A stretch of DNA of 64,000 nt from Escherichia coli (GTDB lineage Bacteria; Pseudomonadota; Gammaproteobacteria; Enterobacterales; Enterobacteriaceae): NCBI RefSeq assembly GCF_036507355.1, contig NZ_AP027877.1, one strand, 5' to 3'. The notes under the pieces are model-generated. The model saw only the letters and a list, made by a program, of their open reading frames with translations, did no database searches and was not told the DNA's origin. How positions within the stretch are numbered: position 1 is the first letter of the stretch; the number at the start of each line of letters is the position of its first letter. Below, piece by piece: positions 1 to 44,070 of this stretch. Made by a program: the position numbers and the translations under genes.

Positions 1-721
1 TCGCCAGCGACAGCGCCGCCAGACGCGTCAGCGACAAGGCCAGCCCGAGATTGCGTGCCACACCATCATCAAGCCCCATCAGGGTTAACGGGCGAAGTAG
101 CAATAACGTCAGCATCACGCCGCCCAGCAGCTGCGGCCATAAACGCTCAACGCCGCCCCAGTCGGTTTGCGTCAGCGTTCCAGTGCTCCACAGAAACATG
201 CTTTGCAACTGGTCATGATGGAAGATAACCAGTAATTGATTGATTGCCCCACAATAAAGGCTCACTACCAGCCCCGCGAGAATCAGCGTTACCGGCGACA
301 GCCGTTTCCCCCACGCGACGCCAAAGACAATTAAGCCAACAACACAAGCCCCTGCCAGCGCAGCAAACTGGCTCGCCATCGCACCAGGGATCGCCCAGAG
401 CGTCGTGACGGTAATCCCCAGTTGCGCGCCTGTAGCAACGCCCAACGTCGTCGGTTCCGCCAGCGGGTTACGCAGCACTTGCTGAAACAGCACGCCCACC
501 AGCCCCAGGCCCGCACCCACCAGCAGCGAAATCGCCAGACGCGGCAACAAGCTGTAGTGAAAAATCATCTGCTCGATGACGTTAATATCCGGCGACCAGG
601 CGGCCTGCGCCCACTGGCTACGCGGCAGCGCCTGCGAAAAGTTCATCCAGGTCAGCGCCGTAGCGACAATCACCAGCAGCGCCAGCAATAACGCCGGGAA
701 AAGCGCAATTCGTTTACTCAC
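1..721 (-). CDS. fhuB: Ferrichrome/hydroxamate ABC transporter permease FhuB, N-terminal part; gene runs off the window start
   Basis: Minus-strand GTG at 719-721 followed by codons for MSKRIA...; start overlaps fhuD stop (GTGA); frame open to window edge. Confidence 0.85.
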   Translation of the reverse strand, partial: MSKRIALFPALLLALLVIVATALTWMNFSQALPRSQWAQAAWSPDINVIEQMIFHYSLLPRLAISLLVGAGLGLVGVLFQQVLRNPLAEPTTLGVATGAQLGITVTTLWAIPGAMASQFAALAGACVVGLIVFGVAWGKRLSPVTLILAGLVVSLYCGAINQLLVIFHHDQLQSMFLWSTGTLTQTDWGGVERLWPQLLGGVMLTLLLLRPLTLMGLDDGVARNLGLALSLTRLAALSLA

Positions 722-7648: not shown

Positions 7649-10078
7649 TTACGAATACTTTTTCGTCCGTCGCGTCGGTGCCGTGTTTGCCGGGTCGTCC
7701 GGCCAGACGTGTTTGGGATAACGCCCTTTCATCTCCTTTTGCACCTCACGATACGCCCCTTTCCAGAAGGCCCCCAAATCACGCGTGATTTGCAGCGGCC
7801 TTTGGGCAGGGGAAAGCAACTCCAGCACCAGCGGCACGCGCCCCTGGGCGATCGTCGGATTGGTGGCCTCACCAAACATCTCCTGCATTCTCACCGCCAG
7901 CGCGGGCGGGTTATCTTCATGATAACGAATGGCGATCCGGCTTCCCGTCGGCACAGTGTAATGCGCAGGCAATTCACTATCCAGACGTTGCTGCATTCCC
8001 CAATCAAGTAATCCGCGTAGTGCCTGATAAATGTCGAGTGATTTCAGGCCGCGTAGTGAATGTACACCGGCCATATGTGGCAGCAGCCACGTTTCCAGCG
8101 TCCCCAACAAACTTTCAACATCAACCGCTGGCCAGTCATATTCTGGCAACCACTTTCCGGCGCATAACAAACGCAAGCGTAGCTGTTCCGCTTCCGCCGT
8201 CCAGTTGAGCACGCTTAAACCTTTATCACGGATGCCGTTAAGCATCGCCTGATGCAACTCGTCTTCTGACGGTTTCGCCAACGGCTGCACTTTCACCGTC
8301 AACTGACCGATTTGCAGCCGACGCCAGGCTTTCAGCGTACCTTGCGCGTCATCCCATTCCACGGTGTCAGATTGCTGCACCAGCTGCGGACAGCGTCGCA
8401 CTAATTCATCAATATCGACCGGTAGCGCCAGTAAAATCCGCGCATCCGGCGAGGCGCTGCCCTGCAATAATAACGGTGCGATCAACCATTCGTGGCGGCT
8501 TAGCGCGTCGTCGGCATCGAGCATCGCTCCCATGCCGTTTGCCAGTTGATAGCGTCCATCTTGCCCACGGCGGCGAGCAATGCGATCGGCAAACGCCCCG
8601 GCAAGTAGCAGCGCGATAAGCGAACTGTCTGCCTCACCGCCGCGTACGTTTAAGCGTTTTAACAGTTGCTGACTACGTTGCTGCCAGGCTGGTTGATTGC
8701 GCGAAAACGCCACGCCCAAGTCACTATTGCCCATCCGTGGCGGCTCTTCGAGAATGGCGGCAATTTTTGCCGCGGTAGCAGCTTCGTCGTCGCTCTTTGC
8801 GCTAACCAGCATTGCCGCTAAACGCGGATCGTTACCCAGCGCTGCCATTTTTTGCCCCTGCGCACTAAGCCGTTCACCGTCCAGCGCCCCCAGCATCTTT
8901 AACAGGCGTTTCGCGGCCAGTAAATTCACTGCTGGCGGTTGATCCAGCCAGCTCATCTGCGCCGGATCGCTGCATCCCCATTGCAGTAATTCCATCAGCA
9001 AACCGGAAAGATCGCTTTGTAATATTTCCGGTTCACTTTGCGCCGCGGCGCGTTCTGCTTGTTCCTTGGCGATTAAATGCAGGCAGATACCCGGCTCCAG
9101 ACGCCCGGCGCGCCCGGCACGCTGCGTCATGGATGCCTGGCTAACGCGTTGAGTAATCAGTCGCGTAAGCCCCGTGCGCGGATCAAAACGCGCCACACGC
9201 TCCTGGGCACAATCCACCACCAGACGAATACCTTCAATGGTTAAACTGGTTTCAGCAATATTGGTCGCCAGCACCACTTTGCGCATCCCTTGCGGTGCCG
9301 GGAGGATCGCTTTTCGCTGATCGTTCAGCGACAACGCGCCATACAGCGGGCAGAGCAATACATCACTGCCGATGCGCGAAGCCAGTTGTTCCTGCACACG
9401 CTGAATTTCTCCGACGCCAGGTAAAAATAACAGTAATGATCCGCTTTCCTGACGCAGCATTTCAGCGGTGGCTACCGCAACGGCATCGTCAAAACGCTGA
9501 TGCGTGGGCAGCGGTAAATAACGGCGTTCAACCGGAAACGAGCGCCCTTCTGAGATGACGACGGGCGCTTCTGGCAGCATTTGCTGCAAGCGGTCGTTGT
9601 CCAGCGTAGCCGACATAATCAGCAGTTTAAGGTCATCACGCAGACCTTGTTGCACATCGAGTAACAGCGCCAACGCCAAATCCGCCTGCAAGCTACGCTC
9701 ATGAAATTCATCAAGGATCACCAATCCAACACCGCTCAGTTCCGGGTCACGCTGGATCATCCGCGTCAGCACGCCTTCGGTAACTACTTCCAGGCGGGTA
9801 TTCGGCCCGACGCAGTTTTGCGCACGCATCCGGTAGCCAACGGTATCGCCTGGCTTTTCGTTAAGCAGCTCCGCCAGCCGTTGCGCGACATTACGCGCCG
9901 CCAGACGACGCGGCTCCAGCAGGATAATTTTCCCGTTAATGCCGGGATGCGCCAGCAGTTGCAGCGGCAGCCAGGTTGATTTCCCGGCCCCGGTCGGCGC
10001 ACTTAATAATACCTGCGGCGCACAATCGAGAGCGGTAAGTAATTCAGGTAAGACGGCAGCAACGGGCAACGACGACAC
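7649..10078 (-). CDS. hrpB: ATP-dependent DEAH-box RNA helicase HrpB
   Basis: ORF track 7649..10123 (824 aa); GTG at 10076-10078 gives the 809-aa form I recall for K-12, ATG at 10121-10123 is the alternative; helicase motif SAPTGAGKST. Confidence 0.85.
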   Translation of the reverse strand: MSSLPVAAVLPELLTALDCAPQVLLSAPTGAGKSTWLPLQLLAHPGINGKIILLEPRRLAARNVAQRLAELLNEKPGDTVGYRMRAQNCVGPNTRLEVVTEGVLTRMIQRDPELSGVGLVILDEFHERSLQADLALALLLDVQQGLRDDLKLLIMSATLDNDRLQQMLPEAPVVISEGRSFPVERRYLPLPTHQRFDDAVAVATAEMLRQESGSLLLFLPGVGEIQRVQEQLASRIGSDVLLCPLYGALSLNDQRKAILPAPQGMRKVVLATNIAETSLTIEGIRLVVDCAQERVARFDPRTGLTRLITQRVSQASMTQRAGRAGRLEPGICLHLIAKEQAERAAAQSEPEILQSDLSGLLMELLQWGCSDPAQMSWLDQPPAVNLLAAKRLLKMLGALDGERLSAQGQKMAALGNDPRLAAMLVSAKSDDEAATAAKIAAILEEPPRMGNSDLGVAFSRNQPAWQQRSQQLLKRLNVRGGEADSSLIALLLAGAFADRIARRRGQDGRYQLANGMGAMLDADDALSRHEWLIAPLLLQGSASPDARILLALPVDIDELVRRCPQLVQQSDTVEWDDAQGTLKAWRRLQIGQLTVKVQPLAKPSEDELHQAMLNGIRDKGLSVLNWTAEAEQLRLRLLCAGKWLPEYDWPAVDVESLLGTLETWLLPHMAGVHSLRGLKSLDIYQALRGLLDWGMQQRLDSELPAHYTVPTGSRIAIRYHEDNPPALAVRMQEMFGEATNPTIAQGRVPLVLELLSPAQRPLQITRDLGAFWKGAYREVQKEMKGRYPKHVWPDDPANTAPTRRTKKYS

Positions 10079-13056: not shown

Positions 13057-14454
13057 ATTTTTACCCGAGTCGCTAATTTTTGCCGCAAGGTGCTAAGCCG
13101 CGAGGAAAGCGAGGCTGAACAGGCAGTCGCCCGTCCACAGGTGACGGTGATCCCGCGTGAGCAGCATGCTATTTCCCGCAAAGATATCAGTGAAAATGCC
13201 CTGAAGGTAATGTACAGGCTCAATAAAGCGGGATACGAAGCCTGGCTGGTTGGCGGCGGCGTGCGCGACCTGTTACTTGGCAAAAAGCCGAAAGACTTTG
13301 ACGTAACCACTAACGCCACGCCTGAGCAGGTGCGCAAACTGTTCCGTAACTGCCGCCTGGTGGGTCGCCGTTTCCGTCTGGCTCATGTGATGTTTGGCCC
13401 GGAGATTATCGAAGTTGCGACCTTCCGTGGACACCACGAAGGTAACGTCAGCGACCGCACGACCTCCCAACGCGGGCAAAACGGCATGTTGCTGCGCGAC
13501 AACATTTTCGGCTCCATCGAAGAAGACGCCCAGCGCCGCGATTTCACTATCAACAGCCTGTATTACAGCGTAGCGGATTTTACCGTCCGTGATTACGTTG
13601 GCGGTATGAAGGATCTGAAGGACGGCGTTATCCGTCTGATTGGTAACCCGGAAACGCGCTACCGTGAAGATCCGGTACGTATGCTGCGCGCAGTACGTTT
13701 TGCCGCCAAATTGGGTATGCGCATCAGCCCGGAAACCGCAGAACCGATCCCTCGCCTCGCTACCCTGCTGAACGATATCCCACCGGCACGCCTGTTTGAA
13801 GAATCGCTTAAACTGCTACAAGCGGGCTACGGTTACGAAACCTATAAGCTGCTGTGTGAATATCATCTGTTCCAGCCGCTGTTCCCGACCATTACCCGCT
13901 ACTTCACGGAAAATGGCGACAGCCCGATGGAGCGGATCATTGAACAGGTGCTGAAGAATACCGATACGCGTATCCATAACGATATGCGCGTGAACCCGGC
14001 GTTCCTGTTTGCCGCCATGTTCTGGTACCCACTGCTGGAGACGGCACAGAAGATCGCCCAGGAAAGCGGCCTGACCTATCACGACGCTTTCGCGCTGGCG
14101 ATGAACGACGTGCTGGACGAAGCCTGCCGTTCACTGGCAATCCCGAAACGTCTGACGACGTTAACCCGCGATATCTGGCAGTTGCAGTTGCGTATGTCCC
14201 GACGTCAGGGTAAACGTGCATGGAAACTGCTGGAGCATCCTAAGTTCCGTGCGGCTTATGACCTGTTGGCCTTGCGAGCTGAAGTTGAACGTAACGCTGA
14301 ACTGCAGCGTCTGGTGAAATGGTGGGGTGAGTTCCAGGTTTCCGCGCCACCAGACCAAAAAGGGATGCTCAACGAGCTGGATGAAGAACCGTCACCGCGT
14401 CGTCGTACTCGTCGTCCACGCAAACGCGCACCACGTCGTGAGGGTACCGCATGA
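13057..14454 (+). CDS. pcnB: Poly(A) polymerase I
   Basis: ORF track 13036..14454; known PAP I N-terminus ([12 protein letters not shown]...) begins at ATT 13057-13059; C-terminal basic tail; stop overlaps folK start (ATGA). Confidence 0.85.
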
Positions 14455-15875: not shown

Positions 15876-15980
15876 TCATTCGTTAGATTCATAAAACGAA
15901 TATATTTGGGAGATAACATTCAACTTACTTAGTAGTGGAATATTACTCCCTATTTTAATTAACTCTGTCAGGAATGGTTT

Positions 15981-16721: not shown

Positions 16722-16755
16722 CTAAATCAGGAATAAACGCAGCAGGAAGCACAAC

Positions 16756-19356
16756 GTGTCCAGAAAAATCATAAAAACGCATAATAACAAACTTACTTAT
16801 ATAGCCTCGTTTTGCGCATTGCTGTTAAGCCCCTGTGCCATAAGCGCTGAACACGTTGAATATGATAATACCTTTTTGATGGGGCAAGATGCTTCTAACA
16901 TCGACCTTAGTCGGTATACCGAAGGTAACCCTACCTTGCCCGGCGTGTATGACGTCAGTGTTTATGTCAACGATCAACCAGTTATCAGCCAAAGCATCTC
17001 CTTTATTACCCTCGAAGGTAAGAAAAATGCGCAGGCTTGTATCACGCTGAAGAATTTATTGCAATTTCACATTAACCAGCCTGATATAAAAGACGAGAAT
17101 GCCATCCTTCTTCAACGAGAAGAAGAGCTAGGGGACTGTCTCGATCTGGGGAATGTTATTCCTCAAGCTTCCGTTCATTACGACGTTAATGATCAACGAC
17201 TGGACATCAACGTTCCTCAAGCCTGGGTAATGAAGAATTACCAAAACTATGTTGATCCATCATTGTGGGAAAACGGTATTAACGCTGCAATGCTGTCCTA
17301 CAATGTCAACGCATATCACAGCGAAATACCAGACAGAAAAAACGACAGTGTTTATGCGGCATTTAACGGCGGTATAAATCTGGGGGCATGGCGGCTTCGT
17401 GCCACCGGTAACTACAACTGGATGACCGATGCAGGCACTAATTACGATTTTCAAAATCGCTATTTGCAGCGCGACCTGGCCTCTTTGCGTTCACAGTTAG
17501 TTGTGGGTGAGTCATACACAACTGGGGAAACCTTTGATTCTGTCAGTATTCGCGGTGTTCGCTTATACAGTGACAGCCGAATGCTACCACCTACATTAGC
17601 CAGTTTTGCGCCAATTATTCATGGTGTTGCTAACACCAACGCAAAAGTCACCATTACCCAGGGTGGTTATAAAATCTATGAAACTACCGTGCCGCCGGGC
17701 GCATTTGTCATTGATGATGTAAGCCCATCAGGCTACGGCAGCGATCTCATTGTCACAATCGAAGAGTCTGATGGCACAAAGCGAACTTTTTCCCAGCCAT
17801 TTTCTTCGGTCGTTCAGATGTTACGTCCAGGTGTGGGAAGATGGGACATCAGTGCAGGTAAGATCTTAAAAGACGATATTCAAAATGAGCCTAATTTGTT
17901 CCAGGCCAGTTATTACTATGGTCTGAACAACCTCCTGACGGGGTATACCGGTATTCAGATTACCGATAATAACTATACTGCCGGGCTGCTTGGTCTTGGT
18001 CTGAATACCACATACGGTGCGTTTTCAGTCGATGTAACCCATTCAGATGTGCAAATTCCGGATGATAAAACCTACCGGGGGCAAAGCTATCGCCTTTCCT
18101 GGAATAAGTTATTTGAAGATACCAGAACTTCGCTCAATATCGCGGCTTACCGTTATTCTACCCAGAATTATCTGGGGCTTAACGATGCCCTGACACTGAT
18201 CGACGAAGTAAAACATCCTGAACAGGACCTGGAACCTAAAAATATGCGTAACTATTCTCGCATGAAAAATCAGGTTACGGTCAGTATTAACCAACCGCTG
18301 AAATATGGAAAGGAAGACTACGGCTCATTCTATCTTTCCGGAAGTTGGTCTGATTATTGGGCTTCCGGTCAAAATAATACCAATTACTCCCTCGGCTACA
18401 GTAACAGCGCATCGTGGGGCAGCTACAGCATTAGTGCTCAGCGCTCCCGGGATCAAGACGGCGATAATGAAGATAGCATCTATCTAAGCTTTAGTATTCC
18501 TATCGAAAAATTACTGGGTACAGAACATCGTAATTCTGGTTTTCAGACCATTGATACTCAGTTAAGTAGTGATTTCGATGGCAGCAACCAACTCAGTATC
18601 AGTAGTAGTGGTTTTAGCGACGATAACCGTATCAGTTATAGCGTCAATACGGGCTATTCGATGATGAAGTCCAGCGATGATTTGAGCTATATCGGTGGGT
18701 ATGCGAGCTATGAATCTCCCTGGGGAACACTTGCCAGTTCAGTTTCCGCCAGCAGCGATAATAGCCGTCAGATCTCATTTAATACCGATGGTGGATTTGT
18801 TTTGCATAGCGGCGGCCTGACCTTCAGTAATGATAGCTTCAGCGATTCCGATACTTTGGCGGTTATACAAGCGCCAGGAGCTAAAGGGGCACGCATTAAC
18901 TATGGTAATAGCACGGTAGACCGTTGGGGATATGGCGTTACTAATGCACTTTCGCCATACCATGAAAACCGAATTGCACTCGATATTAACGGTCTCGAAA
19001 ATGACGTTGAGCTGAAAAGTACCAGTGCTGTTGCCGTACCACGCCAGGGGTCTGTTGTCTTTGCTGGTTTTGAAACTGTCCAGGGGCAATCGGCTATCAT
19101 GAACATCAAGCGTACAGATGGTAAAAACATTCCGTTTGCCGCTGATATTTATGACGAAAACGGCAATATCATTGGTAACGTTGGGCAAGGTGGTCAGGCC
19201 TTTGTTCGAGGTATAGAACAACAAGGCAATATACGAATCAACTGGCTTGACGAGGGTAAACCTGTTACTTGCCTTGCTCATTACCAACAGAGCGCAGCAC
19301 CAGAAAAAATAGCGCAATCTATTATTTTGAATGGAATTAGTTGTCAGATTCAGTAA
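16756..19356 (+). CDS. htrE: Outer-membrane fimbrial usher
   Basis: ORF track 866 aa, GTG start at 16756; usher-sized beta-barrel protein. Confidence 0.85.
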   Translation: MSRKIIKTHNNKLTYIASFCALLLSPCAISAEHVEYDNTFLMGQDASNIDLSRYTEGNPTLPGVYDVSVYVNDQPVISQSISFITLEGKKNAQACITLKNLLQFHINQPDIKDENAILLQREEELGDCLDLGNVIPQASVHYDVNDQRLDINVPQAWVMKNYQNYVDPSLWENGINAAMLSYNVNAYHSEIPDRKNDSVYAAFNGGINLGAWRLRATGNYNWMTDAGTNYDFQNRYLQRDLASLRSQLVVGESYTTGETFDSVSIRGVRLYSDSRMLPPTLASFAPIIHGVANTNAKVTITQGGYKIYETTVPPGAFVIDDVSPSGYGSDLIVTIEESDGTKRTFSQPFSSVVQMLRPGVGRWDISAGKILKDDIQNEPNLFQASYYYGLNNLLTGYTGIQITDNNYTAGLLGLGLNTTYGAFSVDVTHSDVQIPDDKTYRGQSYRLSWNKLFEDTRTSLNIAAYRYSTQNYLGLNDALTLIDEVKHPEQDLEPKNMRNYSRMKNQVTVSINQPLKYGKEDYGSFYLSGSWSDYWASGQNNTNYSLGYSNSASWGSYSISAQRSRDQDGDNEDSIYLSFSIPIEKLLGTEHRNSGFQTIDTQLSSDFDGSNQLSISSSGFSDDNRISYSVNTGYSMMKSSDDLSYIGGYASYESPWGTLASSVSASSDNSRQISFNTDGGFVLHSGGLTFSNDSFSDSDTLAVIQAPGAKGARINYGNSTVDRWGYGVTNALSPYHENRIALDINGLENDVELKSTSAVAVPRQGSVVFAGFETVQGQSAIMNIKRTDGKNIPFAADIYDENGNIIGNVGQGGQAFVRGIEQQGNIRINWLDEGKPVTCLAHYQQSAAPEKIAQSIILNGISCQIQ

Positions 19357-19375
19357 CAACAGGGAATTTCACATA

Positions 19376-19945: not shown

Positions 19946-19959
19946 CAGGGATGATAATA

Positions 19960-20565: not shown

Positions 20566-20591
20566 CAGGCCATTAAAGTCAGGGACCGATT

Positions 20592-21188
20592 ATGCTTTCC
20601 TCTCAACTAAAAATTAAGATAAAAACAAGTCTGTTCCTGGCATTATTGTTTGCCACATCCAGCCCTGTATATGCAGGACTGGATGTGGATATGGTTGCCA
20701 ATATCAAGAACAGTACATGTAAAAGTGGCCTCAGCAACCTTGGTAATATCGACCTTGGTGTGGTGGGTGTGGAGTATTTTTCTGGTAATGTCACGGCTGA
20801 AGACAATTATCCCGGCGGGAGAGAGTTCACTGTCACTGTGACTGACTGCGCCATCCAGGGTTCTGGAAATGTGTTAAATCAGTTACATATTAACTTTAAA
20901 CCACTCAATGGCGTGATGGCGACTGGCTCTCAGCAAATTTTTGCAAATGAAAATGTCGCCGGGGCTCAAAACGTAGGTGTAGTCATATTTTCCATTCAGG
21001 ATCCGGCTAATACATTTAATGTTCTTAATCCAGCGGGCAGTTCTCGTTCAATTTATCCGGTGATGACGGCTGATTTAAACAATTCATCCTGGAAATTCTA
21101 CACACGAATGCAAAAAATTAACCCAGCGCTAAATATCGCATCGGGTCAGGTCAAAAGCACTGTGCTGATTGATATTTATTATGAATAG
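20592..21188 (+). CDS. yadK: Fimbrial minor subunit
   Basis: ORF track 198 aa with signal peptide. Confidence 0.8.
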   Translation: MLSSQLKIKIKTSLFLALLFATSSPVYAGLDVDMVANIKNSTCKSGLSNLGNIDLGVVGVEYFSGNVTAEDNYPGGREFTVTVTDCAIQGSGNVLNQLHINFKPLNGVMATGSQQIFANENVAGAQNVGVVIFSIQDPANTFNVLNPAGSSRSIYPVMTADLNNSSWKFYTRMQKINPALNIASGQVKSTVLIDIYYE

Positions 21189-21228
21189 TCTCATGCATAA
21201 GAAATATAACTAAACACACATATTGGGA

Positions 21229-22488
21229 ATGATACAAATGAGAGCCATTCTTAACCACTTAATTTTATTATTATTTATATCCAGTTTTTCGCTCTATGCT
21301 GCCAACAATACAATATTTGTCGTTGGAGCAGGAAACGCCGATAGTTTTGCTGGTCCTTCTGGCAATGGAAGAGCAACATTCCGCTATTCGACGGCCAGTA
21401 ATAATTTAGTATTTTATAAACCAACCGGACCTGGCGTTGTTAAAACAAATGTAAAACTCTACTGGTCACAACTCGACACAGCAAGCGGGGGGAATACAGG
21501 GCTTGTATATTGCAACAGGGCTGGCTCTGCCAGTGACGAACCCATTCTCATTAAGCCTAAAATGGTAGAGTCTGGTTTAACTTATGGCGGTAATAAGCTA
21601 TTTAAAACCTCCGTGACCGGCCTTTACTACACGCTAACTATTTCTAATATTTGGACAGCATGGGACACAACAACTAATATCTCTTCTATCGTTGTCGGTA
21701 ATCGCCCGGATGGTGAGTATGATGGTTTCCGTTTTCAGGTTAGTAATTCTTATGTTAATCAAGGCTGTAATAATGCCGGCACAACCAGTAAATATGCGGC
21801 CATTGGTGGCATAATGCAAAGCCTTACCATCGAATTTTATACCGATGGCACATTTGATCCGGTGCAAAATCAGAAAGTTACCTTATTACGTACTGCTGAC
21901 CACCTCTACGAATTTAAAACGGAAGGAGCAGGTGGCGGTATCAACGAACATAGCAAATCTATTTATGTCGATTTTGATTTGGTAAATATCACGATTACAT
22001 TACCGACCTGTTTTACTTCTGTTCTTACTGGAACATCTGTTAGTGGTTCTACGGTAAAAATGGGGGAATACACCTCTGAGGAAATTAAAAATGGAGCGAC
22101 ACCTGTTCCTTTCGATATTTCCCTGCAAAACTGTATACGGGTAAGAAATATTGAAACAAAGCTTGTTTCCGCAAAAGTTGGCACTGAGAACAGAAAACTA
22201 CTCGGTAATACTCTCACCGGTAATGATGCAGCAAAGGGAGTAGGTGTATTAGTTGAGGGCTTGCTATCCGTTAAAAGTCTGCAAATGGTTCTGGAGCCGA
22301 ATAACGCCTCTTCCGTGTATAAAGATTATGAGTATGAAGACGATGCAACTGAGGGGATATATCCCGATAAAGGAAACGGTACAACACAAGCACTCCATTT
22401 CCAGGCTACATTACAGCAGGATGGAACTATACCAATAGAATCAGGTGAGTTTAAAGCCACCAGTACTTTCCAGGTGACCTACCCTTAA
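21229..22488 (+). CDS. yadC: Fimbrial tip adhesin-like protein
   Basis: ORF track 21223..22488 (421 aa, TTG); ATG candidates at 21229 and 21238, exact start uncertain; signal peptide LILLLFISSFSLYA. Confidence 0.75.
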   Translation: MIQMRAILNHLILLLFISSFSLYAANNTIFVVGAGNADSFAGPSGNGRATFRYSTASNNLVFYKPTGPGVVKTNVKLYWSQLDTASGGNTGLVYCNRAGSASDEPILIKPKMVESGLTYGGNKLFKTSVTGLYYTLTISNIWTAWDTTTNISSIVVGNRPDGEYDGFRFQVSNSYVNQGCNNAGTTSKYAAIGGIMQSLTIEFYTDGTFDPVQNQKVTLLRTADHLYEFKTEGAGGGINEHSKSIYVDFDLVNITITLPTCFTSVLTGTSVSGSTVKMGEYTSEEIKNGATPVPFDISLQNCIRVRNIETKLVSAKVGTENRKLLGNTLTGNDAAKGVGVLVEGLLSVKSLQMVLEPNNASSVYKDYEYEDDATEGIYPDKGNGTTQALHFQATLQQDGTIPIESGEFKATSTFQVTYP

Positions 22489-22495
22489 TAAGCCC

Positions 22496-22524
22496 ACCGC
22501 ACCGCCATCATCTGGCGGTGCGGT
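22496..22524 (+). terminator. GC-rich stem-loop after yadC (11-bp perfect stem accgcaccgcc/ggcggtgcggt)
   Basis: Read directly; weak U tract (aattgat), possible operon terminator. Confidence 0.4.
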
Positions 22525-22600
22525 AATTGATAAATCATTGCCCCCACCAATGTGACTGATAAAATGCCAGGTAACACGACATCATTTATCAGGACACGTT

Positions 22601-23395
22601 ATGAAACCGACCACCATTGCTTCATTGCAAAAATGCAAACAGGAAAAAAAACGTTTCGCGACCATCACCGCTTACGACTATAGCTTCGCCAAACTCTTTG
22701 CCGATGAAGGACTTAATGTCATGCTGGTAGGCGACTCGCTGGGCATGACGGTTCAGGGGCACGACTCCACCCTGCCAGTTACCGTTGCTGATATCGCCTA
22801 CCACACTGCCGCCGTACGTCGTGGCGCGCCAAACTGCCTGTTGTTGGCTGACCTGCCGTTTATGGCGTATGCCACGCCGGAACAAGCTTTTGAAAACGCC
22901 GCAACGGTTATGCGTGCCGGTGCTAACATGGTCAAAATTGAAGGCGGTGAGTGGCTGGTCGAAACCGTAAAAATGCTGACCGAACGTGCCGTTCCTGTAT
23001 GTGGTCACTTAGGTTTAACCCCACAGTCAGTGAATATTTTCGGTGGCTACAAAGTTCAGGGGCGCGGCGATGAAGCGAGCGATCGACTGCTTAGCGATGC
23101 ATTAGCCTTAGAAGCCGCTGGTGCACAGTTGCTGGTGCTGGAATGCGTTCCGGTTGAACTGGCAAAACGTATTACCGAAGCACTGGCGATCCCGGTTATT
23201 GGCATTGGCGCAGGCAACGTCACTGACGGGCAGATCCTCGTGATGCACGATGCGTTCGGCATTACCGGCGGCCATATCCCTAAATTTGCCAAAAATTTCC
23301 TCGCTGAAACGGGCGACATCCGCGCGGCTGTGCGGCAGTATATGGCTGAAGTGGAGTCCGGCGTTTATCCGGGCGAAGAACACAGTTTCCATTAA
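22601..23395 (+). CDS. panB: 3-methyl-2-oxobutanoate hydroxymethyltransferase
   Basis: ORF track 264 aa, [33 protein letters not shown]... Confidence 0.95.
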
Positions 23396-23406
23396 GGAGT
23401 GACGTT

Positions 23407-35778: not shown

Positions 35779-36126
35779 ATGAAGACGTTTTTCAGAACAG
35801 TGTTATTCGGCAGCCTGATGGCCGTTTGCGCAAACAGTTACGCGCTCAGCGAGTCTGAAGCCGAAGATATGGCCGATTTAACGGCAGTTTTTGTCTTTCT
35901 GAAGAACGATTGTGGTTACCAGAACTTACCTAACGGGCAAATTCGTCGCGCACTGGTCTTTTTCGCCCAGCAAAACCAGTGGGATCTCAGTAACTACGAC
36001 ACCTTCGACATGAAAGCCCTCGGTGAAGACAGCTACCGCGATCTCAGCGGCATTGGCATTCCCGTCGCTAAAAAATGCAAAGCCCTGGCCCGCGATTCCT
36101 TAAGCCTGCTTGCCTACGTCAAATAA
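35779..36126 (+). CDS. yacC: Small periplasmic protein YacC (PulS/OutS-like)
   Basis: ATG 35779 (MKTFFRTVLFGSLMAVCANSYA signal peptide), 115 aa inside ORF track 35608..36126. Confidence 0.8.
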   Translation: MKTFFRTVLFGSLMAVCANSYALSESEAEDMADLTAVFVFLKNDCGYQNLPNGQIRRALVFFAQQNQWDLSNYDTFDMKALGEDSYRDLSGIGIPVAKKCKALARDSLSLLAYVK

Positions 36127-36231
36127 TCCCTGATACCTTTTTGTAGAAATATTGACCGTGCATCCGCGGTCAATGTTAGCTATTATGTTGCGCCCTTTTT
36201 TTACGGGTGTTAACAAAGGAGGTATCAACCC

Positions 36232-37098
36232 ATGGCCGAAAAAAAACAGTGGCATGAAACGCTACACGACCAGTTTGGGCAGTACTTTGCGGTAGATAAC
36301 GTTCTGTATCATGAAAAGACCGATCACCAGGATCTGATCATTTTTGAGAACGCTGCATTTGGTCGCGTAATGGCGCTGGATGGCGTAGTACAAACCACCG
36401 AGCGCGACGAGTTTATCTATCATGAGATGATGACCCATGTTCCGCTACTGGCCCACGGTCACGCGAAACATGTGCTGATTATCGGCGGCGGCGACGGTGC
36501 CATGCTGCGTGAAGTAACCCGACATAAAAACGTTGAGTCAATCACGATGGTGGAAATCGATGCGGGTGTCGTGTCGTTCTGCCGTCAGTATCTACCCAAC
36601 CATAACGCCGGTAGCTACGACGATCCGCGCTTTAAGCTGGTGATCGACGATGGCGTCAATTTCGTTAATCAAACCAGCCAGACCTTTGATGTCATTATCT
36701 CCGACTGCACCGATCCTATCGGTCCCGGCGAAAGCCTTTTCACTTCGGCATTTTATGAAGGCTGCAAACGTTGCCTGAATCCTGGCGGTATCTTCGTCGC
36801 ACAAAACGGCGTCTGCTTTTTACAGCAGGAAGAAGCCATCGACAGCCATCGCAAACTCAGCCATTACTTCAGCGACGTTGGCTTTTATCAGGCGGCGATC
36901 CCGACCTATTACGGCGGTATCATGACTTTTGCATGGGCGACAGATAACGACGCCTTACGCCATCTCTCAACCGAAATTATTCAGGCGCGTTTTCTCGCCT
37001 CTGGCCTGAAATGCCGTTATTACAATCCGGCAGTCCATACGGCAGCTTTTGCCTTACCCCAGTATCTGCAAGACGCACTGGCTTCACAGCCGTCCTAA
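36232..37098 (+). CDS. speE: Spermidine synthase
   Basis: ORF track 288 aa, [40 protein letters not shown]... Confidence 0.95.
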
Positions 37099-37113
37099 GG
37101 AGAAGATAAGAAA

Positions 37114-37908
37114 TTGAAAAAACTGAAACTGCATGGCTTTAATAATCTGACCAAAAGTCTGAGTTTTTGTATTTACGATATCTGCTACGCCAAAACTGCC
37201 GAAGAGCGCGACGGTTATATTGCTTATATCGATGAACTCTATAATGCCAACCGTCTGACCGAAATCCTGTCAGAAACCTGTTCCATTATCGGGGCTAATA
37301 TTCTTAACATCGCCCGCCAGGATTACGAACCACAGGGTGCCAGCGTCACTATTCTGGTGAGTGAAGAACCGGTTGACCCGAAACTTATCGACAAAACAGA
37401 ACACCCCGGCCCACTGCCAGAAACGGTCGTTGCCCATCTCGATAAAAGTCATATTTGCGTACATACCTACCCGGAAAGTCATCCTGAAGGCGGTTTATGT
37501 ACCTTCCGCGCCGATATTGAAGTCTCTACCTGCGGCGTGATTTCTCCGCTGAAGGCGCTGAATTACCTGATCCACCAGCTTGAGTCCGATATCGTAACCA
37601 TTGATTATCGCGTGCGCGGTTTTACCCGCGACATTAACGGTATGAAGCACTTTATCGACCATGAGATTAATTCGATTCAGAACTTTATGTCTGACGATAT
37701 GAAGGCGCTGTATGACATGGTGGATGTAAACGTCTATCAGGAAAATATCTTCCATACCAAGATGTTGCTTAAAGAGTTCGACCTTAAGCACTACATGTTC
37801 CACACCAAACCGGAAGATTTAACCGACAGCGAGCGCCAGGAAATTACCGCTGCGCTGTGGAAAGAAATGCGCGAGATTTATTACGGGCGCAATATGCCAG
37901 CTGTTTAA
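37114..37908 (+). CDS. speD: S-adenosylmethionine decarboxylase proenzyme
   Basis: ORF track 264 aa with TTG start at 37114; [22 protein letters not shown]... Confidence 0.9.
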
Positions 37909-37912
37909 CGGC

Positions 37913-37948
37913 TCTGGCGGAGCTCCCAGGCTCCGCCAGATTTATTTA
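37913..37948 (+). terminator. Rho-independent terminator after speD, overlapping the yacL stop
   Basis: Stem tctggcggagc/gctccgccaga followed by tttattta. Confidence 0.6.
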
Positions 37949-38308
37949 CTTCTGCTGCACGAAATTGCGGTAAGCCGCCACCACCTGCAGAAAATCCTCA
38001 ACGCCGCATAGCGACAGGCTTTCTTCGTCGTAGTAGTTCATCCCCTCTTCCATTTCATCGCCAGCGAATTCCAGTTGATTGGCGCGAACCATCACCTCTT
38101 CACCGTCCATCCACAGGGTGTATTCATGCCCTGCCCGTTGCCAGGACCGTTCGCTACCTTTCAGTGCGTGCGCTGCTTGTTCCACTTCATCAAGCAAGGC
38201 CAGGTTTTCTTTCACCTCTTCATTAAACCAGTGCCCGACCACTTCATGCCCCATGGACATACGCACCTTTACCACTCCGGTAATATCGCGCAGAAATTCG
38301 TAATCCAT
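37946..38308 (-). CDS. yacL: UPF0231 family protein YacL
   Basis: ORF track 37946..38356; start at ATG 38306-38308 ([17 protein letters not shown]...), 120 aa. Confidence 0.8.
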
Positions 38309-38410
38309 AGTGTGTTCCTCTGCTCCCGGCAATGCGCCGAAATCGCATTGCGCCATTGATGTAATTATCGCAGCCTTACCGGAGAAAAACAGCGGAACGG
38401 CGATGGTTTA

Positions 38411-38448
38411 GAAATAAAAAATGCCCGGGAATCTCATTCACCGGGCAT
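38411..38448 (-). terminator. Rho-independent terminator after acnB
   Basis: Stem atgcccgg/ccgggcat; on the minus strand followed by UUUUUAUUU. Confidence 0.65.
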
Positions 38449-38482
38449 TGTGTCGTTTATGCGCAGCGCGTGCGCTGACTTT

Positions 38483-41080
38483 TTAAACTGCAGTCTGGAA
38501 AATCACCCCATCGGCTTTCTCGGTGTACTGAGAAAGCTGGTTGAAGTTCAGATAACGGTAAGTATCAACGGCTGTTTTATCTACCTGCGCCACGTAGGTC
38601 TGGTACTCTTCCGGCGTCGGCAGTTTGCCAATCAGCGCCGCAACAGCAGCCAGTTCCGCAGAAGCCAGGAAGACGTTTGCACCAGTACCCAGACGGTTCG
38701 GGAAGTTACGGGTAGAGGTGGAAACCACCGTCGCACCGTCTGCTACACGCGCCTGGTTACCCATACACAGGGAACAGCCAGGGATCTCGATACGCGCACC
38801 ACTCTTACCGAAGACGCTGTAGTAGCCTTCTTCGGTCAACTGTGCGGCGTCCATACGGGTTGGCGGTGCCACCCACAGGCGGGTCGGCAACTGGCCTTTA
38901 TGCGCATCCAGCAGTTTACCCGCAGCACGGAAGTGACCGATGTTGGTCATGCAGGAACCGATAAACACTTCGTCGATCTTCTCACCCTGTACCGCAGACA
39001 GCGGACGCGCGTCATCCGGGTCGTTCGGAGCACACAGGATTGGCTCTTTAATATCCGCCAGATCGATGTCGATCACTGCCGCGTATTCCGCATCTGCATC
39101 GGCTTCCAGCAGCTCAGGATTCGCCAGCCATTTTTCCATGCCCTGAATACGACGTTCCAGGGTGCGACGATCGCCGTAACCTTCCGCGATCATCCACTTC
39201 AGCAGGACGATGTTGGAGTTCAGGTATTCGATGATCGGTTCTTTGTTCAGCTTGATGGTACAACCGGCAGCAGAACGCTCGGCGGACGCATCGGTCAGTT
39301 CAAATGCCTGCTCAACTTTCAGATCCGGCAGACCTTCAATTTCCAGAATGCGACCTGAGAAGATGTTTTTCTTGCCTTTCTTCTCAACGGTCAGCAGACC
39401 TTGTTTGATCGCATACAGCGGAATAGCGTGTACCAGATCGCGCAGGGTGATGCCCGGCTGCATTTTGCCTTTGAAGCGCACCAGAACGGATTCCGGCATA
39501 TCCAGCGGCATTACGCCTGTTGCGGCTGCAAATGCCACCAGACCAGAACCCGCCGGGAAAGAGATACCGATCGGGAAACGGGTATGGGAGTCACCACCGG
39601 TACCGACGGTATCCGGCAGCAGCATACGGTTCAGCCAGGAGTGGATTACGCCGTCACCCGGACGCAGCGACACACCGCCACGGTTCATAATGAAGTCCGG
39701 CAGCGTGTGGTGCGTGTTCACGTCAACTGGCTTCGGATACGCCGCGGTGTGGCAGAAAGACTGCATCACCAGGTCAGCCGAGAAGCCCAGGCACGCCAGG
39801 TCTTTCAGTTCATCACGGGTCATCGGGCCTGTGGTGTCCTGAGAGCCTACAGAAGTCATTTTCGGTTCACAGTACGCGCCCGGACGAATGCCTTTCACGC
39901 CACAGGCACGGCCTACCATTTTCTGCGCCAGCGAGAAGCCGCGATCGCTCTCAGCGACATCTTTCGCCTGACGGAACACATCACTGTGCGGCAGACCAAG
40001 TGCTTCACGCGCTTTGGTGGTCAGGCCACGCCCGATAATCAGCGGAATACGGCCGCCAGCACGCACTTCATCAATCAGCACGTCGGTTTTCAGTTCGAAG
40101 GTCGCCAGCAGTTCGCCTGTTTCGTGGTTACGCACTTCACCTTTGTACGGGTAAACGTCAATCACGTCGCCCATGTTCAGGTTAGAGACGTCGACTTCGA
40201 TTGGCAGTGCACCCGCGTCTTCCATCGTGTTAAAGAAGATGGGTGCAATTTTACCGCCGAGGCACAAACCACCGCCGCGTTTGTTCGGCACATGTGGAAT
40301 ATCATCGCCCATAAACCACAGAACGGAGTTCGTGGCGGATTTACGCGAAGAACCCGTACCCACAACGTCACCGACGTACGCCAGCGGGAAACCTTTCTGT
40401 TGCAGAGCTTCGATTTGCTTGATCGGACCAACAACACCAGGCTGGTCTGGCTCAATACCTTCACGGGCGTTTTTCAGCATCGCCAGCGCGTGCAGTGGGA
40501 TATCCGGGCGCGACCACGCATCCGGTGCCGGAGAAAGGTCATCGGTGTTGGTTTCGCCAGTGACTTTGAAGACGGTAACGGTCAGTTTTTCAGCCAGCGC
40601 CGGGCGATTCAGGAACCATTCGGCATCCGCCCAGGACTGCATTACCTGCTTCGCATATTCGTTGCCTGCTTTCGCTTTCTCTTCTACGTCATAGAAGTTA
40701 TCGAACATCAGCAGCGTGTGAGAAAGTGCTTTGGCAGCGATCGGTGCCAGTTTGGCATCATCCAGCGCGTCGATCAGCGGATGAATGTTGTAACCACCCT
40801 GCATGGTGCCCAGCAGTTCGATGGCTTTTTCCGGAGTCAGCAGTGGGGATTTGGCTTCACCTTTCGCGACAGCAGCCAGGAAGCCTGCTTTGACATAGGC
40901 GGCTTCATCGACGCCAGGGGGAACACGGTTGGTTAATAGATCTAACAGGAATTCTTCTTCGCCCGCGGGCGGGTTTTTCAGCAGCTCTACAAGTGCGGCC
41001 ATTTGGTTTGCATCCAGGGGTTTGGGCGCAATCCCCTCAGCGGCACGCTCAGCTACGTGCTTACGGTATTCTTCTAGCAC
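38483..41080 (-). CDS. acnB: Aconitate hydratase B (bifunctional aconitase / 2-methylisocitrate dehydratase)
   Basis: ORF track 38483..41233; known N-terminus [16 protein letters not shown] corresponds to GTG at 41078-41080, 865 aa. Confidence 0.93.
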
Positions 41081-42498
41081 GACGGTTCTCCTCGCTCTCA
41101 TTGTCATAGTGCGGCAGGCGATTCTCTTCACGCTCCTGTGAGACAGCAGTTTGTAGGGTAAATGCCCAGTACCGCAACGGGCAGAATAGCAGGATTTTGA
41201 CGATGTGTTAATCTGTTTACAAAAAAGCAACATAAAAAAGTGGCTGAATCGTTAAGGATGGTCTAGAGATTGTTTCCCTCCGTAAAAACTTCGTTAATTC
41301 GCATAGTGATAATCACCTTTCTCAACGAATCCCAAGATTAGTCAAAATTTAAACTACCGCCTCTTTATACTCAGATTTACAGCACCTGCGGGTGGCAGTT
41401 CGCCGACCATTGCGATTTCCTTGAGATCCGAATTATGAAAATGACTTTGCCGTTTAAACCCCATGTGCTGGCGCTAATTTGCAGTGCCGGGCTTTGTGCC
41501 GCCTCTACCGGGCTATATATAAAAAGCCGCACAGTGGAAGCGCCTGTGGAACCGCAATCGACACAACTGGCTGTGTCTGACGCTGCCGCGGTTACGCTTC
41601 CTGCAACGGTTTCCGCACCTCCCGTAACACCCGCCGTCGTCAAATCCGCATTCAGCACTGCACAAATAGATCAATGGGTCGCGCCCGTCGCGCTGTATCC
41701 CGACGCCCTACTTTCGCAGGTGCTGATGGCATCAACCTATCCGACAAACGTTGCTCAAGCAGTGCAATGGTCGCACGATAATCCACTTAAACAAGGCGAT
41801 GCTGCTATTCAGGCGGTATCTGACCAGCCGTGGGACGCCAGCGTTAAATCACTGGTGGCCTTTCCACAATTGATGGCATTGATGGGCGAAAACCCGCAAT
41901 GAGTGCAAAACCTGGGCGATGCTTTTCTGGCGCAGCCGCAGGACGTGATGGACTCGGTACAGCGATTGCGGCAACTGGCGCAACAAACCGGCTCGCTGAA
42001 GTCATCAACCGAACAGAAAGTTATTACCACAACGAAGAAAGCTGTACCGGTAAAACAGACAGTCACGGCACCCGTCATACCATCCAATACCGTTTCAACT
42101 GCCAACCCTGTCATTACAGAGCCTGCAACAACCGTCATTTCCATTGAGCCCGCCAATCCTGATGTAGTCTATATTCCCAACTACAACCCAACCGTGGTTT
42201 ACGGGAACTGGGCCAATACTGCGTATCCGCCGGTTTATCTGCCACCACCAGCCGGAGAACCGTTTGTTGACAGCTTTGTGCGCGGATTCGGCTATAGCAT
42301 GGGCGTTGCTACCACGTACGCACTATTCAGCAGCATCGACTGGGATGACGACGATCATGACCATTATCATCATGACGATGATAATTATCATCACCACGAT
42401 GGCGGTCATCGTGACGGTAATGGCTGGCAACACAATGAATCGCCACGGGTTTAACAGACACCTCAGAGTCATTTAAGATGGCTTAAAGAGAGGTGCCC

Positions 42499-42777
42499 AT
42501 GAGCGGTAAGCGTTATCCCGAAGAGTTTAAAATTGAAGCAGTCAAACAGGTTGTTGATCGCGGTTATTCTGTTGCCAGCGTTGCAACACGTCTCGATATC
42601 ACCACCCACAGCCTTTACGCCTGGATAAAGAAGTACGGTCCGGATTCTTCCGCTAATAAAGAACAGTCAGATGCTCAGGCCGAGATCCGCCGTCTCCAGA
42701 AAGAGCTGAAGCGGGTTACCGACGAACGGGACATATTAAAAAAAGCCGCGGCGTACTTCGCAAAGCTGTCCGACTGA
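42499..42777 (+). CDS. IS3-family transposase OrfA (helix-turn-helix plus leucine zipper)
   Basis: MSGKRYPEEFKIEAVKQVVDRGYSVASVATRLDITTHSLYAWIKKYG...; slippery A7G at 42738-42745 near the 3' end. Confidence 0.85.
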   Translation: MSGKRYPEEFKIEAVKQVVDRGYSVASVATRLDITTHSLYAWIKKYGPDSSANKEQSDAQAEIRRLQKELKRVTDERDILKKAAAYFAKLSD

Positions 42778-42833
42778 GGTACGCCTTTATCCGTGACAAC
42801 ACCTGTTGCTGGCCTGTTCGCCTGCTCTGTCGG

Positions 42834-43646
42834 GTGCTGGATGTTCATCCCAGTGGTTTTTACGCCTGGCTTCAGCAGCCGCATTCACAACGCCATCAGG
42901 CAGACCTGAGGCTGACAGGGCAGATTAAACAGTTCTGGCTGGAATCGGGATGCGTCTATGGTTATCGCAAAATCCATCTGGATCTGCGGGACAGCGGGCA
43001 ACAGTGCGGAGTGAACAGAGTCTGGCGACTGATGAAACGTGTCGGGATAAAGGCTCAGGTCGGATACCGGAGCCCGCGGGCACGTAAAGGCGAGGCCAGT
43101 ATCGTGTCGCCCAACAGGCTCCAGCGACAGTTCAATCCGGATGCTCCGGATAAGCGTTGGGTAACGGACATAACCTACATCAGGACCCACGAAGGCTGGC
43201 TGTATCTTGCCGTGGTTGTTGATCTGTTCTCACGCAAAATTATCGGCTGGTCCATGCAATCCCGGATGACAAAGGACATTGTCCTGAACGCACTGCTGAT
43301 GGCTGTATGGCGCCGTAATCCCCAAAAACAGGTGCTGGTTCATTCGGATCAGGGCAGTCAGTACACAAGCCATGAGTGGCAGTCGTTCCTGAAATCACAC
43401 GGCCTGGATGGCAGCATGAGCCGTCGCGGTAACTGCCATGATAATGCGGTTGCAGAAAGCTTTTTCCAGTTGTTGAAACGCGAACGGATAAAGAAAAAGA
43501 TCTACGGAACGCGGGAAGAAGCCCGCAGCGATATTTTTGATTACATCGAAATGTTTTATAACAGTAAGCGTCGGCATGGTTCCAGCGATCAGATGTCACC
43601 GACAGAATATGAAAACCAGTATTATCAACGGCTCGGAAGTGTCTAG
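42834..43646 (+). CDS. IS3-family transposase OrfB (DDE integrase core), expected as OrfAB fusion by -1 frameshift
   Basis: ORF track 270 aa in -1 frame relative to orfA; motifs WVTDITYI, HSDQGSQYTS, CHDNAVAESFF. Confidence 0.85.
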   Translation: MLDVHPSGFYAWLQQPHSQRHQADLRLTGQIKQFWLESGCVYGYRKIHLDLRDSGQQCGVNRVWRLMKRVGIKAQVGYRSPRARKGEASIVSPNRLQRQFNPDAPDKRWVTDITYIRTHEGWLYLAVVVDLFSRKIIGWSMQSRMTKDIVLNALLMAVWRRNPQKQVLVHSDQGSQYTSHEWQSFLKSHGLDGSMSRRGNCHDNAVAESFFQLLKRERIKKKIYGTREEARSDIFDYIEMFYNSKRRHGSSDQMSPTEYENQYYQRLGSV

Positions 43647-44070
43647 ATTATCCGTGGCGATTCACAACGGCGACAACATCAATATCGACGTCAACAATTT
43701 CAACCGTATCACCGGTGAGCATCTTACTGATAAGAATATGGCATGGCGGCACAATCAAAACTACCGTAATGGTGTGCCCTATCATGATCAGGATATGGCA
43801 AAGCGGTTTCATCAAACCGATGTCAACGGCGGAATGAGTGCCACGCAGCTACCTGCTCCAACACGCGACAGCCAGCGTCAGGCGGCAGCAAGTCAGTTTC
43901 AGCAACGAACACACGCCGCCCCCGTCATTACACGAGATACCCAACGTCAGGCAGCGGCACAGCGGTTTAATGAAGCTGAACACTATGGGAGCTATGACGA
44001 CTTCCGCGACTTCAGCCGTCGCCAACCACTGACCCAGCAACAAAAGGACGCCGCTCGTCAGCGTTATCAG

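Follow-up and report, generated by a model that had tools for sequence, protein, structure and literature searches.

Do six well-known genes in a segment of Escherichia coli DNA truly begin at GTG or TTG, and, if they do, is there anything unusual about these starts? The window analysed here is a stretch of 64,000 nucleotides (contig NZ_AP027877.1, assembly GCF_036507355.1), for which the initial annotation had assigned non-ATG starts to speD, acnB, panC, htrE, fhuB and, with the qualifier "probably", hrpB. Each codon is present at its assigned position and strand (Table 1), and each matches the start codon curated at the homologous base of K-12 MG1655 (NC_000913.3). The window is not K-12 itself, the best E. 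coli identity over positions 36000–42000 being 99.1%. From −30 to +33 around the start, the sequence is identical to that of K-12 for speD, acnB and fhuB and differs by one base for panC and hrpB; htrE, part of a divergent allele of the yad operon, has 26 differences in these 63 bases. We consider it very likely (a probability of roughly 0.93) that the six gene starts are annotated correctly and that their codons are near-cognate initiation codons of the ordinary bacterial kind.

Table 1. Coding sequences with non-ATG starts in the window and their Shine-Dalgarno (SD) elements. Positions are those of the window.
Feature	Position	Strand	SD duplex ΔG (kcal/mol)	Start codon and remarks
speD CDS (S-adenosylmethionine decarboxylase proenzyme, 264 aa)	37114..37908	+		TTG 37114–37116; equals the K-12 b0120 start (TTG)
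speD SD TAAGGAG	37096..37102	+	−9.1	Begins with the speE stop TAA (37096–37098)
acnB CDS (aconitase B, 865 aa)	38483..41080	−		GTG 41080–41078; K-12 b0118 GTG
acnB SD GAGGAG	41088..41093	−	−8.9	7 nt before GTG; within a 24-nt block nearly invariant across Enterobacteriaceae
panC CDS (pantothenate synthetase, 283 aa)	23407..24258	+		GTG 23407–23409; K-12 b0133 GTG
panC SD TAAGGAG	23393–23399	+	−8.7	Overlaps the panB stop
htrE-type fimbrial usher CDS (866 aa, divergent allele)	16756..19356	+		GTG 16756–16758; the K-12 htrE GTG (b0139) maps here
htrE SD AGGAAG	16744–16749	+	−4.3	Only candidate start with an SD
fhuB CDS (first 240 codons; runs off the left end of the window)	1..721	−		GTG 721–719; K-12 b0153 GTG
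fhuB SD GGAGG	728–732	−	−10.8	−1.7 or weaker for other candidates
hrpB CDS (809 aa)	7649..10078	−		GTG 10078–10076; K-12 b0148 GTG
hrpB SD GGAG	10085–10088	−	−6.1	6 nt before GTG
pcnB CDS (poly(A) polymerase I, 465 aa)	13057..14454	+		ATT 13057–13059
pcnB SD GAGGTG	13047–13052	+	−7.2	Best of candidates

The initial annotation had also held that in each case either the first in-frame ATG or the longest open reading frame would give a wrong N-terminus. The first part stands for all six genes. The first in-frame ATG is codon 177 in speD, codon 19 in panC, codon 42 in htrE and codon 26 in fhuB, and it lies upstream of the true start in acnB (by 51 codons) and in hrpB (by 15 codons). The second part holds for acnB and hrpB, where the longest open reading frame encodes 916 rather than 865 and 824 rather than 809 amino acids, respectively, but not for speD, panC, htrE and fhuB, in which the longest open reading frame begins at the correct GTG or TTG. 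Both rules of annotation practice, first ATG and longest frame, thus fail within the window. Naively applied, they would remove 176 residues from SpeD, the first membrane helix from FhuB and the signal peptide from HtrE, and would lengthen AcnB by 51 spurious residues. In places automated annotation is still at odds with curation, as in the ATC start called by PGAP for the htrE allele and the 824-residue HrpB in nr.

All in-frame candidate starts of each gene were compared for pairing with the anti-SD sequence, and in every gene the strongest pairing belonged to the annotated start. Published initiation profiling of K-12, a different strain from that of the window, was drawn from literature tables. 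INRI-seq peaks are located at the annotated starts of acnB (412–493), panC (149–244), speD and, weakly, htrE (7.6–13.3), in five of five replicates for each gene, and the in vivo Ribo-RET data contain a peak at the acnB start (191) and none at those of speD, panC or htrE. For hrpB, fhuB and pcnB neither data set records a peak; this zero carries no information either way, since many other annotated starts in the same table score zero as well. Classical Edman data are reported for SpeD and AcnB. N-terminal proteomics, which had been put forward as a check on these starts, bears out PanC, for which a published N-terminal peptide (residues 1–11) is classed as a dbTIS GTG start in the TRAINSPOTTER supplement; panC is the only one of the six genes among the matches listed there, and the TetRP tables (PMC4909307) mention none of them. 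Taken together, a published initiation footprint or peptide supports four of the six starts. Finally, the chains of four of the proteins in the Protein Data Bank begin at the annotated start residue: AcnB (1L5J, 865 aa), PanC (1IHO, 283 aa), HrpB (6HEG, 809 aa, and 6EUD) and FhuB (7LB8).

In fhuB the GTG overlaps the stop codon of fhuD (GTGA). An in-frame stop lies two codons upstream of the GTG, so there is no upstream alternative start, and the first membrane helix contains the first ATG. INRI-seq lists a weak peak out of frame with fhuB, 15 nt before its GTG.

For acnB and hrpB, in which in-frame ATG codons precede the GTG with no intervening stop, some annotated starts could be wrong and translation could begin at an upstream ATG, i.e. 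at 10123 in hrpB (giving 824 aa) or at 41233, 41107 or 41101 in acnB. We regard this as very unlikely overall, and for acnB it is close to excluded. None of the upstream ATGs in the two genes has an SD (ΔG +1.9 to −2.9; the GTGs of hrpB and acnB reach −6.1 and −8.9, respectively), and with the downstream codon included the in-frame acnB ATGs at codons −51, −9, −7 and +26 range from +1.9 to −3.1. The INRI-seq and Ribo-RET peaks at the acnB GTG are strong, and the table of alternative sites contains no other acnB site. In Erwiniaceae and Yersiniaceae a spacer shorter by 1 nt places the acnB ATGs out of frame, and in one Yersinia an in-frame TAA occurs six codons upstream of the start. Other species have their upstream in-frame stop anywhere between 6 and 59 codons from the start, so an extension of 51 codons is not a conserved feature.

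The acnB GTG itself was retained in 31 of 31 Enterobacterales species genomes. This invariance alone is not statistically remarkable, as 9 of 55 codons for invariant residues near the start are also fully invariant. Cross-species comparison also showed conservation of the upstream block ACAATGAGAGCGAGGAGAACCGTC. At the translation initiation region of acnB the small RNA RyhB blocks 30S binding by ~10-fold in toeprint assays (Benjamin & Masse, 2014; PMC4150767). The GUG of the window sits in that initiation region, which is nearly invariant across Enterobacteriaceae, and this published RyhB/Hfq target site may account in part for the conserved sequence around the acnB start; the text of PMC4150767 makes no mention of the acnB GUG, and a literature search on the acnB GTG start was unhelpful. 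A scan against Rfam detected no known RNA element between 36 and 42 kb. Elsewhere in the window it matched tp2, STnc40 and naRNA4.

Some observations favour the upstream ATG of hrpB. E. albertii and Citrobacter share this ATG, 824-residue versions of the protein occur in older nr records, and the GTG lacks a recorded initiation-profiling peak. The GTG is likewise kept in E. albertii and Citrobacter. The best 120 homologues reach only as far as Citrobacter, where the upstream ATG and the entire intergenic region are conserved, so species comparison cannot separate the two starts. Several other observations argue for the GTG. Pairing at the ATG amounts to −2.4 versus −6.1 kcal/mol at the GTG, and a TTG at codon +3 shares the SD of the GTG but at a spacing of ~15 nt. 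The ATG sits within GATGCTACAATG, which, judged by its sequence, may represent an extended −10-like element, and conservation of the whole 73-nt intergenic region between the divergent thpR and hrpB fits promoter constraint rather than coding. A consensus promoter scan near hrpB returned only a match on the plus strand, on the thpR side, and none for hrpB. The protein has 809 residues in current curated and PGAP records, and it is the 809-residue form that was crystallised. The hrpB GTG, which the initial annotation had offered as probable, stays probable: the strength of the SDs, the curated annotation and the constructs behind the solved structures suggest that hrpB, like fhuB, uses its GTG in vivo.

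The usher gene required separate consideration, as the yad/htrE operon of the window is only ~70% identical to that of K-12 (the K-12 usher has 865 residues). NCBI PGAP calls an ATC four codons downstream of the GTG as the start in two RefSeq sequences, NZ_CP101513.1 and NZ_CP073988.1 (operon identity 98.1%; protein WP_370447119.1), which for the window would mean initiation at ATC 16768 and a protein of 862 residues. However, both sequences also contain the GTG, which aligns with the curated GTG of K-12 htrE, where the INRI-seq peak is found. A core of GCAGGAAGCA..C-GTG is common to both alleles, the AGGAAG element being held at unchanged spacing despite the many differences around the start, whereas ATC 16768 has no SD and published measurements put initiation at ATC at ~1–3% of that at AUG. 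Initiation of this allele at the ATC is thus highly improbable, and we retain the GTG.

The list of non-ATG starts in the initial annotation was incomplete, for it left out the rarest case, the ATT of pcnB. The region from −30 to +33 around this codon is identical to that of K-12. Here, the longest open reading frame would begin at TTG 13036 and the first ATG is codon 52. Where they cite Binns & Masters (2002), PMC2939334 and bioRxiv 10.1101/063800 give pcnB and infC as the two confirmed AUU starts of E. coli. These two resemble the six genes in that a weak start codon limits output; they differ in that AUU is non-canonical, rare and yields 1–3% of AUG, whereas the six belong to the common GUG/UUG class, which yields 10–100% of AUG.

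With pcnB, seven non-ATG starts were noticed in a single window of 64 kb, which might suggest a regional peculiarity, i.e. a segment enriched for weak start codons. The count does not bear this out. Published start codons of E. coli are 83% ATG, 14% GTG and 3% TTG, and 7 of the 54 mapped genes in the window (13%) have a non-ATG start, compared with ~17% genome-wide (9.2 expected; the probability of at least seven is 0.83). Moreover, the genes concerned are scattered over unrelated operons on both strands. Local enrichment is ruled out by these numbers, and a regional peculiarity has next to no probability.

According to the established mechanism, the 30S subunit would be positioned on these messages by an SD 6–11 nt upstream of the start. 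The initiator fMet-tRNA would then tolerate a mismatch at the first or third base and read GUG or UUG (AUU in the case of pcnB) in the P site, under proofreading by IF3, and because it is the initiator tRNA that reads the near-cognate codon, the protein would still begin with methionine. Given their published yields relative to AUG, near-cognate codons would act as fixed attenuators of translation, and the strong SDs present in the window would partly offset this. All six starts were already recorded in the curated K-12 annotation; they are correct but ordinary. The mildly new point is that the TTG of speD was unchanged in 80 of 80 Enterobacterales species genomes examined, and nothing else about the starts is new biologically.

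The speD TTG follows an in-frame stop six codons upstream. Orthologues beginning at ATG codons at other positions would have spoken against the annotated starts; for speD and acnB the comparison favours these starts: Enterobacterales keep the speD TTG, as they keep the acnB GTG, and distant relatives of SpeD, which occur in other gene contexts, have ATG at the homologous codon in six of eight loci. Across the species compared, none of 37 four-fold sites in speD was invariant, and only 1 of 137 codons for an invariant amino acid was. At equal depth nearby ATG starts do switch (speE four GTG, cueO two, yacL one). A published survey of start codons (Belinky, Rogozin & Koonin, 2017; PMC5622118) describes a pattern in which a sub-optimal start is combined with a strong SD, and the speD UUG, which in most genera stands behind a TAAGGAGGTGA-type SD, is likewise arranged. 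According to the same survey, selection weakly favours AUG, and UUG is favoured least. In this respect speD differs, its UUG being invariant while synonymous sites are saturated, so the weak codon looks actively retained. We infer that selection acting on SpeD output maintains the invariant UUG.

The arrangement upstream of the codon was also compared among genera. Most other genera carry TAAGGAGGTGA or GGGGGTGA there, with TTG after a gap of 6 nt. The spacing between SD and TTG in E. coli is 11 nt, which is above the usual and counts against the explanation preferred here. Tight translational coupling to speE was considered as a cause of the UUG and rejected. The speD start lies between −37 and +77 nt from the speE stop, depending on the species, and what is conserved is therefore not a fixed stop–start geometry.

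It is possible, although we hold it to be unlikely, that the speD UUG, the weakest of the canonical start codons, is a selected control point rather than a neutral leftover, in which case UUG together with a strong SD could fix the ratio of SpeD to SpeE or make SpeD synthesis responsive to IF3 or polyamines. This proposal covers the Enterobacterales, in which speD comes after speE, and the arrangement TAAGGAGGTGA-N6-UUG, a near-perfect extended SD. The polyamine modulon of Igarashi and Kashiwagi reportedly consists of genes with UUG or GUG starts, or with distant SDs, whose translation is stimulated by polyamines. With its UUG and, in E. coli, its SD spacing of 11 nt, speD resembles such genes, a likeness seen in the sequence that serves only as a lead; a literature search returned nothing relevant on the TTG/UUG start of speD and no paper tying speD to the modulon.

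A weak UUG behind a very strong SD, unchanged across a whole bacterial order, suggests selection on the amount of SpeD. In eukaryotes AdoMet decarboxylase is under translational feedback. Should the speD UUG be a control point, IF3- or polyamine-responsive synthesis of AdoMet decarboxylase would be a bacterial counterpart of that feedback.

When all CDS starts of the curated MG1655 record (NC_000913.3) were mapped onto the window, each of the six GTG or TTG codons proposed as starts in the initial annotation coincided with a curated start, and the codon was identical in K-12 (6/6). Direct reading of the sequence agreed with this mapping, and the positions were exact. Over the 63 nt around the start, speD, acnB and fhuB show no difference from K-12, panC and hrpB differ by one base each and htrE differs by 26 bases. 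The initial annotation had warned that the first in-frame ATG or the longest ORF would give a wrong N-terminus. The first half of this warning holds in all six genes: the first in-frame ATG lies downstream in speD (codon 177), panC (codon 19), htrE (codon 42) and fhuB (codon 26), and 51 and 15 codons before the GTG in acnB and hrpB, respectively. The second half applies to acnB (916 aa) and hrpB (824 aa) but fails for the other four, whose longest ORF already opens at the GTG or TTG. The observation is correct and already on record in the reference annotation; its value lies in cautioning annotators, and its biological interest is low.

Start codons and other features located in the window
Feature	Position	Strand	Basis or remark
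speD start, TTG	37114	+	direct reading of sequence
acnB start, GTG	41080	-	direct reading of sequence
panC start, GTG	23407	+	direct reading of sequence
htrE start, GTG	16756	+	direct reading of sequence
fhuB start, GTG	721	-	direct reading of sequence
hrpB start, GTG	10078	-	direct reading of sequence
pcnB start, ATT	13057-13059	+	K-12 start mapping; ATT also in K-12
htrE, ATC of RefSeq/PGAP records	16768	+	4 codons past GTG
panC internal site, codon 117 ATG	23755-23757	+	published N-terminomics table
ATC upstream of fhuB	736	-	15 nt upstream of GTG, in fhuD 3′ end
yadN-yadV-htrE-yadMLK-yadC operon	15200-22550		divergent allele
yadE premature stop	about 27460-27462	-	codon 52 (Gln in K-12)
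yacH in-frame stop	41900-41902		within yacH (41435-...)
IS3-family insertion sequence	42436-43664		1,229 bp; interrupts yacH
aroP 5′ end	52259-52264	+	ATGATG in K-12; first codon here ATA
tp2 sRNA family	50796-50909	+	Rfam gathering-score match; upstream of aceE
STnc40 sRNA family	62664-62733	-	Rfam gathering-score match
naRNA4 sRNA family	62184-62260	-	Rfam gathering-score match

The ATT of pcnB, rarest of the window's start codons, was missing from the initial list; in this gene the first ATG is codon 52, and the longest ORF would open at TTG 13036. With pcnB included, 7 of 54 genes (13%) have non-ATG starts. The published E. coli split (83% AUG, 14% GUG, 3% UUG) predicts 9.2, and enrichment in the window was rejected (P(X>=7)=0.83).

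Because the initial annotation probably drew on existing records, agreement with annotation would by itself be circular, and four independent lines of evidence were therefore considered. Pairing to the 16S rRNA 3′ tail was calculated for all in-frame ATG, GTG and TTG candidates of each gene, and in every gene the annotated codon had the strongest Shine–Dalgarno (SD) pairing. The values were −10.8 kcal/mol for fhuB (the best of the set), −9.1 for speD, −8.7 for panC and −7.2 for the pcnB ATT; acnB scored −8.9 versus +1.9 to −3.1 for ATGs at −51, −9, −7 and +26, hrpB −6.1 versus −2.4 for the upstream ATG, and htrE −4.3, its other in-frame candidates lacking an SD. In-frame stops lie two codons upstream of the fhuB GTG, which overlaps the fhuD stop (GTGA), and six codons upstream of the speD TTG.

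Since the start regions are identical, experiments in K-12 are transferable to the window. INRI-seq (Supplementary Table S2, PMC9825163) reports peaks at the annotated starts of acnB (412–493), panC (149–244), speD (35–61) and htrE (7.6–13.3), each in 5/5 replicates, and the Ribo-RET column of the same table is positive for acnB (191); hrpB, fhuB and pcnB are zero in both, as are many other annotated starts. For the N-terminal proteomics proposed in the initial annotation, the TRAINSPOTTER supplement (PMC13245402) lists PanC peptide 1–11, assigned to the GTG start. A published N-terminomics table also lists a second, internal panC initiation site with a peptide; the window retains both this codon and the peptide. 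Solved chains of AcnB (1L5J, 865 aa), PanC (1IHO, 283 aa), HrpB (6HEG, 809 aa) and FhuB (7LB8) begin at the GTG-start residues; these proteins are complete from there, which does not in itself prove the cellular start.

The "probably" originally attached to hrpB was the right strength, as the GTG has no initiation-profiling peak and both E. albertii and Citrobacter keep the ATG that lies 15 codons before it. The whole 73-nt thpR–hrpB intergenic region is conserved in these genomes, and older nr records use the upstream ATG (824 aa). The GTG is favoured because of a GGAG at 6 nt, current curation and the crystallised 809-aa protein, and hrpB probably starts there. fhuB likewise has no profiling peak, but in its favour there is no upstream alternative start and its SD is the best of the set. 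The INRI-seq alternative-site table contains a weak K-12 peak (12.1, 3 replicates) at an out-of-frame ATC 15 nt upstream of its GTG.

For the htrE allele of the window, RefSeq/PGAP records place the usher start at an ATC (related loci L004–L006). Because both diverged alleles share the GTG together with AGGAAG as its SD, and the ATC lacks one, the GTG is considered correct; the ATC probably reflects a mistake in automated start calling that has spread with protein WP_370447119.1. The yad/htrE fimbrial operon is an allele other than that of K-12, ~70% identical to it and 98.1% identical to that of a few environmental and animal strains. Divergence runs throughout the operon (about 70–84% identity to K-12), and yadC had no nucleotide match to K-12. 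The flanking folK and panB are 90–99% identical to K-12, so the operon is a fimbrial cassette swapped in by recombination.

The window covers the E. coli region fhu-hrpB-pcnB-yad-pan-gcd-spe-acnB-ace-guaC-mutT, reversed in orientation relative to K-12. It is not from K-12; when 5,426 complete E. coli genomes were compared over 36000–42000, the top identity was 99.1%. The IS3-family element within yacH is bounded by imperfect terminal inverted repeats of 38 nt (TGAATCGCCACGG...). The closest E. coli record lacks it, and it is 99.8% identical to IS3-family copies elsewhere. An in-frame stop leaves yacH with 155 aa versus 617 aa in K-12, and the premature stop makes yadE a pseudogene in this strain. 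Together these lesions suggest a lineage accumulating pseudogenes, possibly Shigella, a group outside the collection searched. Because the first aroP codon is ATA, its start would move one codon later, to 52262 (456 aa). None of the Rfam matches in the window (tp2, STnc40, naRNA4) lies near the start codons in question.

Initiation at these codons would follow the standard near-cognate route, in which the SD would place the 30S subunit and initiator tRNA, proofread by IF3, would read GUG, UUG or AUU and bring in Met. Published output relative to AUG is 10–100% for GUG/UUG and 1–3% for AUU. Only two AUU starts are confirmed in E. coli, and pcnB has one of them (Binns & Masters, 2002, via PMC2939334 and bioRxiv 10.1101/063800); its weak start codon has a known role in limiting a toxic enzyme.

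A SpeD scan of species-representative genomes yielded 80 loci, from Escherichia to Photorhabdus, Yersinia, Pectobacterium, Budvicia and Sodalis. The acnB start was GTG in all 31 loci whose flank reaches it. Its closest upstream in-frame stop varies among species from 6 to 59 codons away, and in Erwiniaceae and Yersiniaceae the spacer is 1 nt shorter, so that the ATGs present in E. coli at −7 and −9 lose the reading frame; the upstream extension is therefore not coding. The 24 nt upstream are near-invariant, and within the first 80 codons invariant four-fold sites occur only at codons 2, 6 and 12. This pattern would fit a RyhB/Hfq target, RyhB and Hfq being known to occlude the acnB initiation region (PMC4150767).

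The speD start was TTG in 80/80 loci. Among eight distant SpeD relatives (44–60% identity) found by searching cluster representatives and examined at the DNA level, six have ATG at exactly the homologous codon and one has TTG there; the eighth has TTG one codon upstream, in an ORF over-extended by the gene caller. This is the opposite of the orthologues with ATG at different positions that would have contradicted the initial annotation.

Across the 80 genomes the surroundings of the TTG vary: none of 37 four-fold degenerate speD sites is invariant, only one of the 137 codons whose amino acid never changes is itself invariant, codon 2 encodes K, Q, H, S, N or R, and the speE stop lies anywhere between −37 and +77 nt from the speD start. 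The TTG is unchanged throughout although T>A or T>G yields a better start codon, and neighbouring ATG starts switch at the same depth (speE, four GTG; cueO, two; yacL, one). In most genera (59/80 of the speE–speD loci L007–L086) the TTG comes a fixed number of nucleotides after TAAGGAGGTGA or GGGGGTGA, an almost full-length complement of the 16S rRNA 3′ end (anti-SD). E. coli and E. albertii carry a degraded version, TAAGGAGAAGA, at 11-nt spacing. General surveys find weak selection towards AUG, rank UUG as the least favoured codon and describe stronger SDs as compensation (PMC5622118); the speD UUG, by contrast, never changes. A literature search found no paper linking it to SpeD:SpeE balance or a polyamine/IF3 response. 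Given its invariance amid variable sites, the strong SD at fixed spacing and the survey trend, the TTG with its SD looks like a retained setting of the speD translation rate, which may serve the SpeD:SpeE balance or a polyamine/IF3 response.
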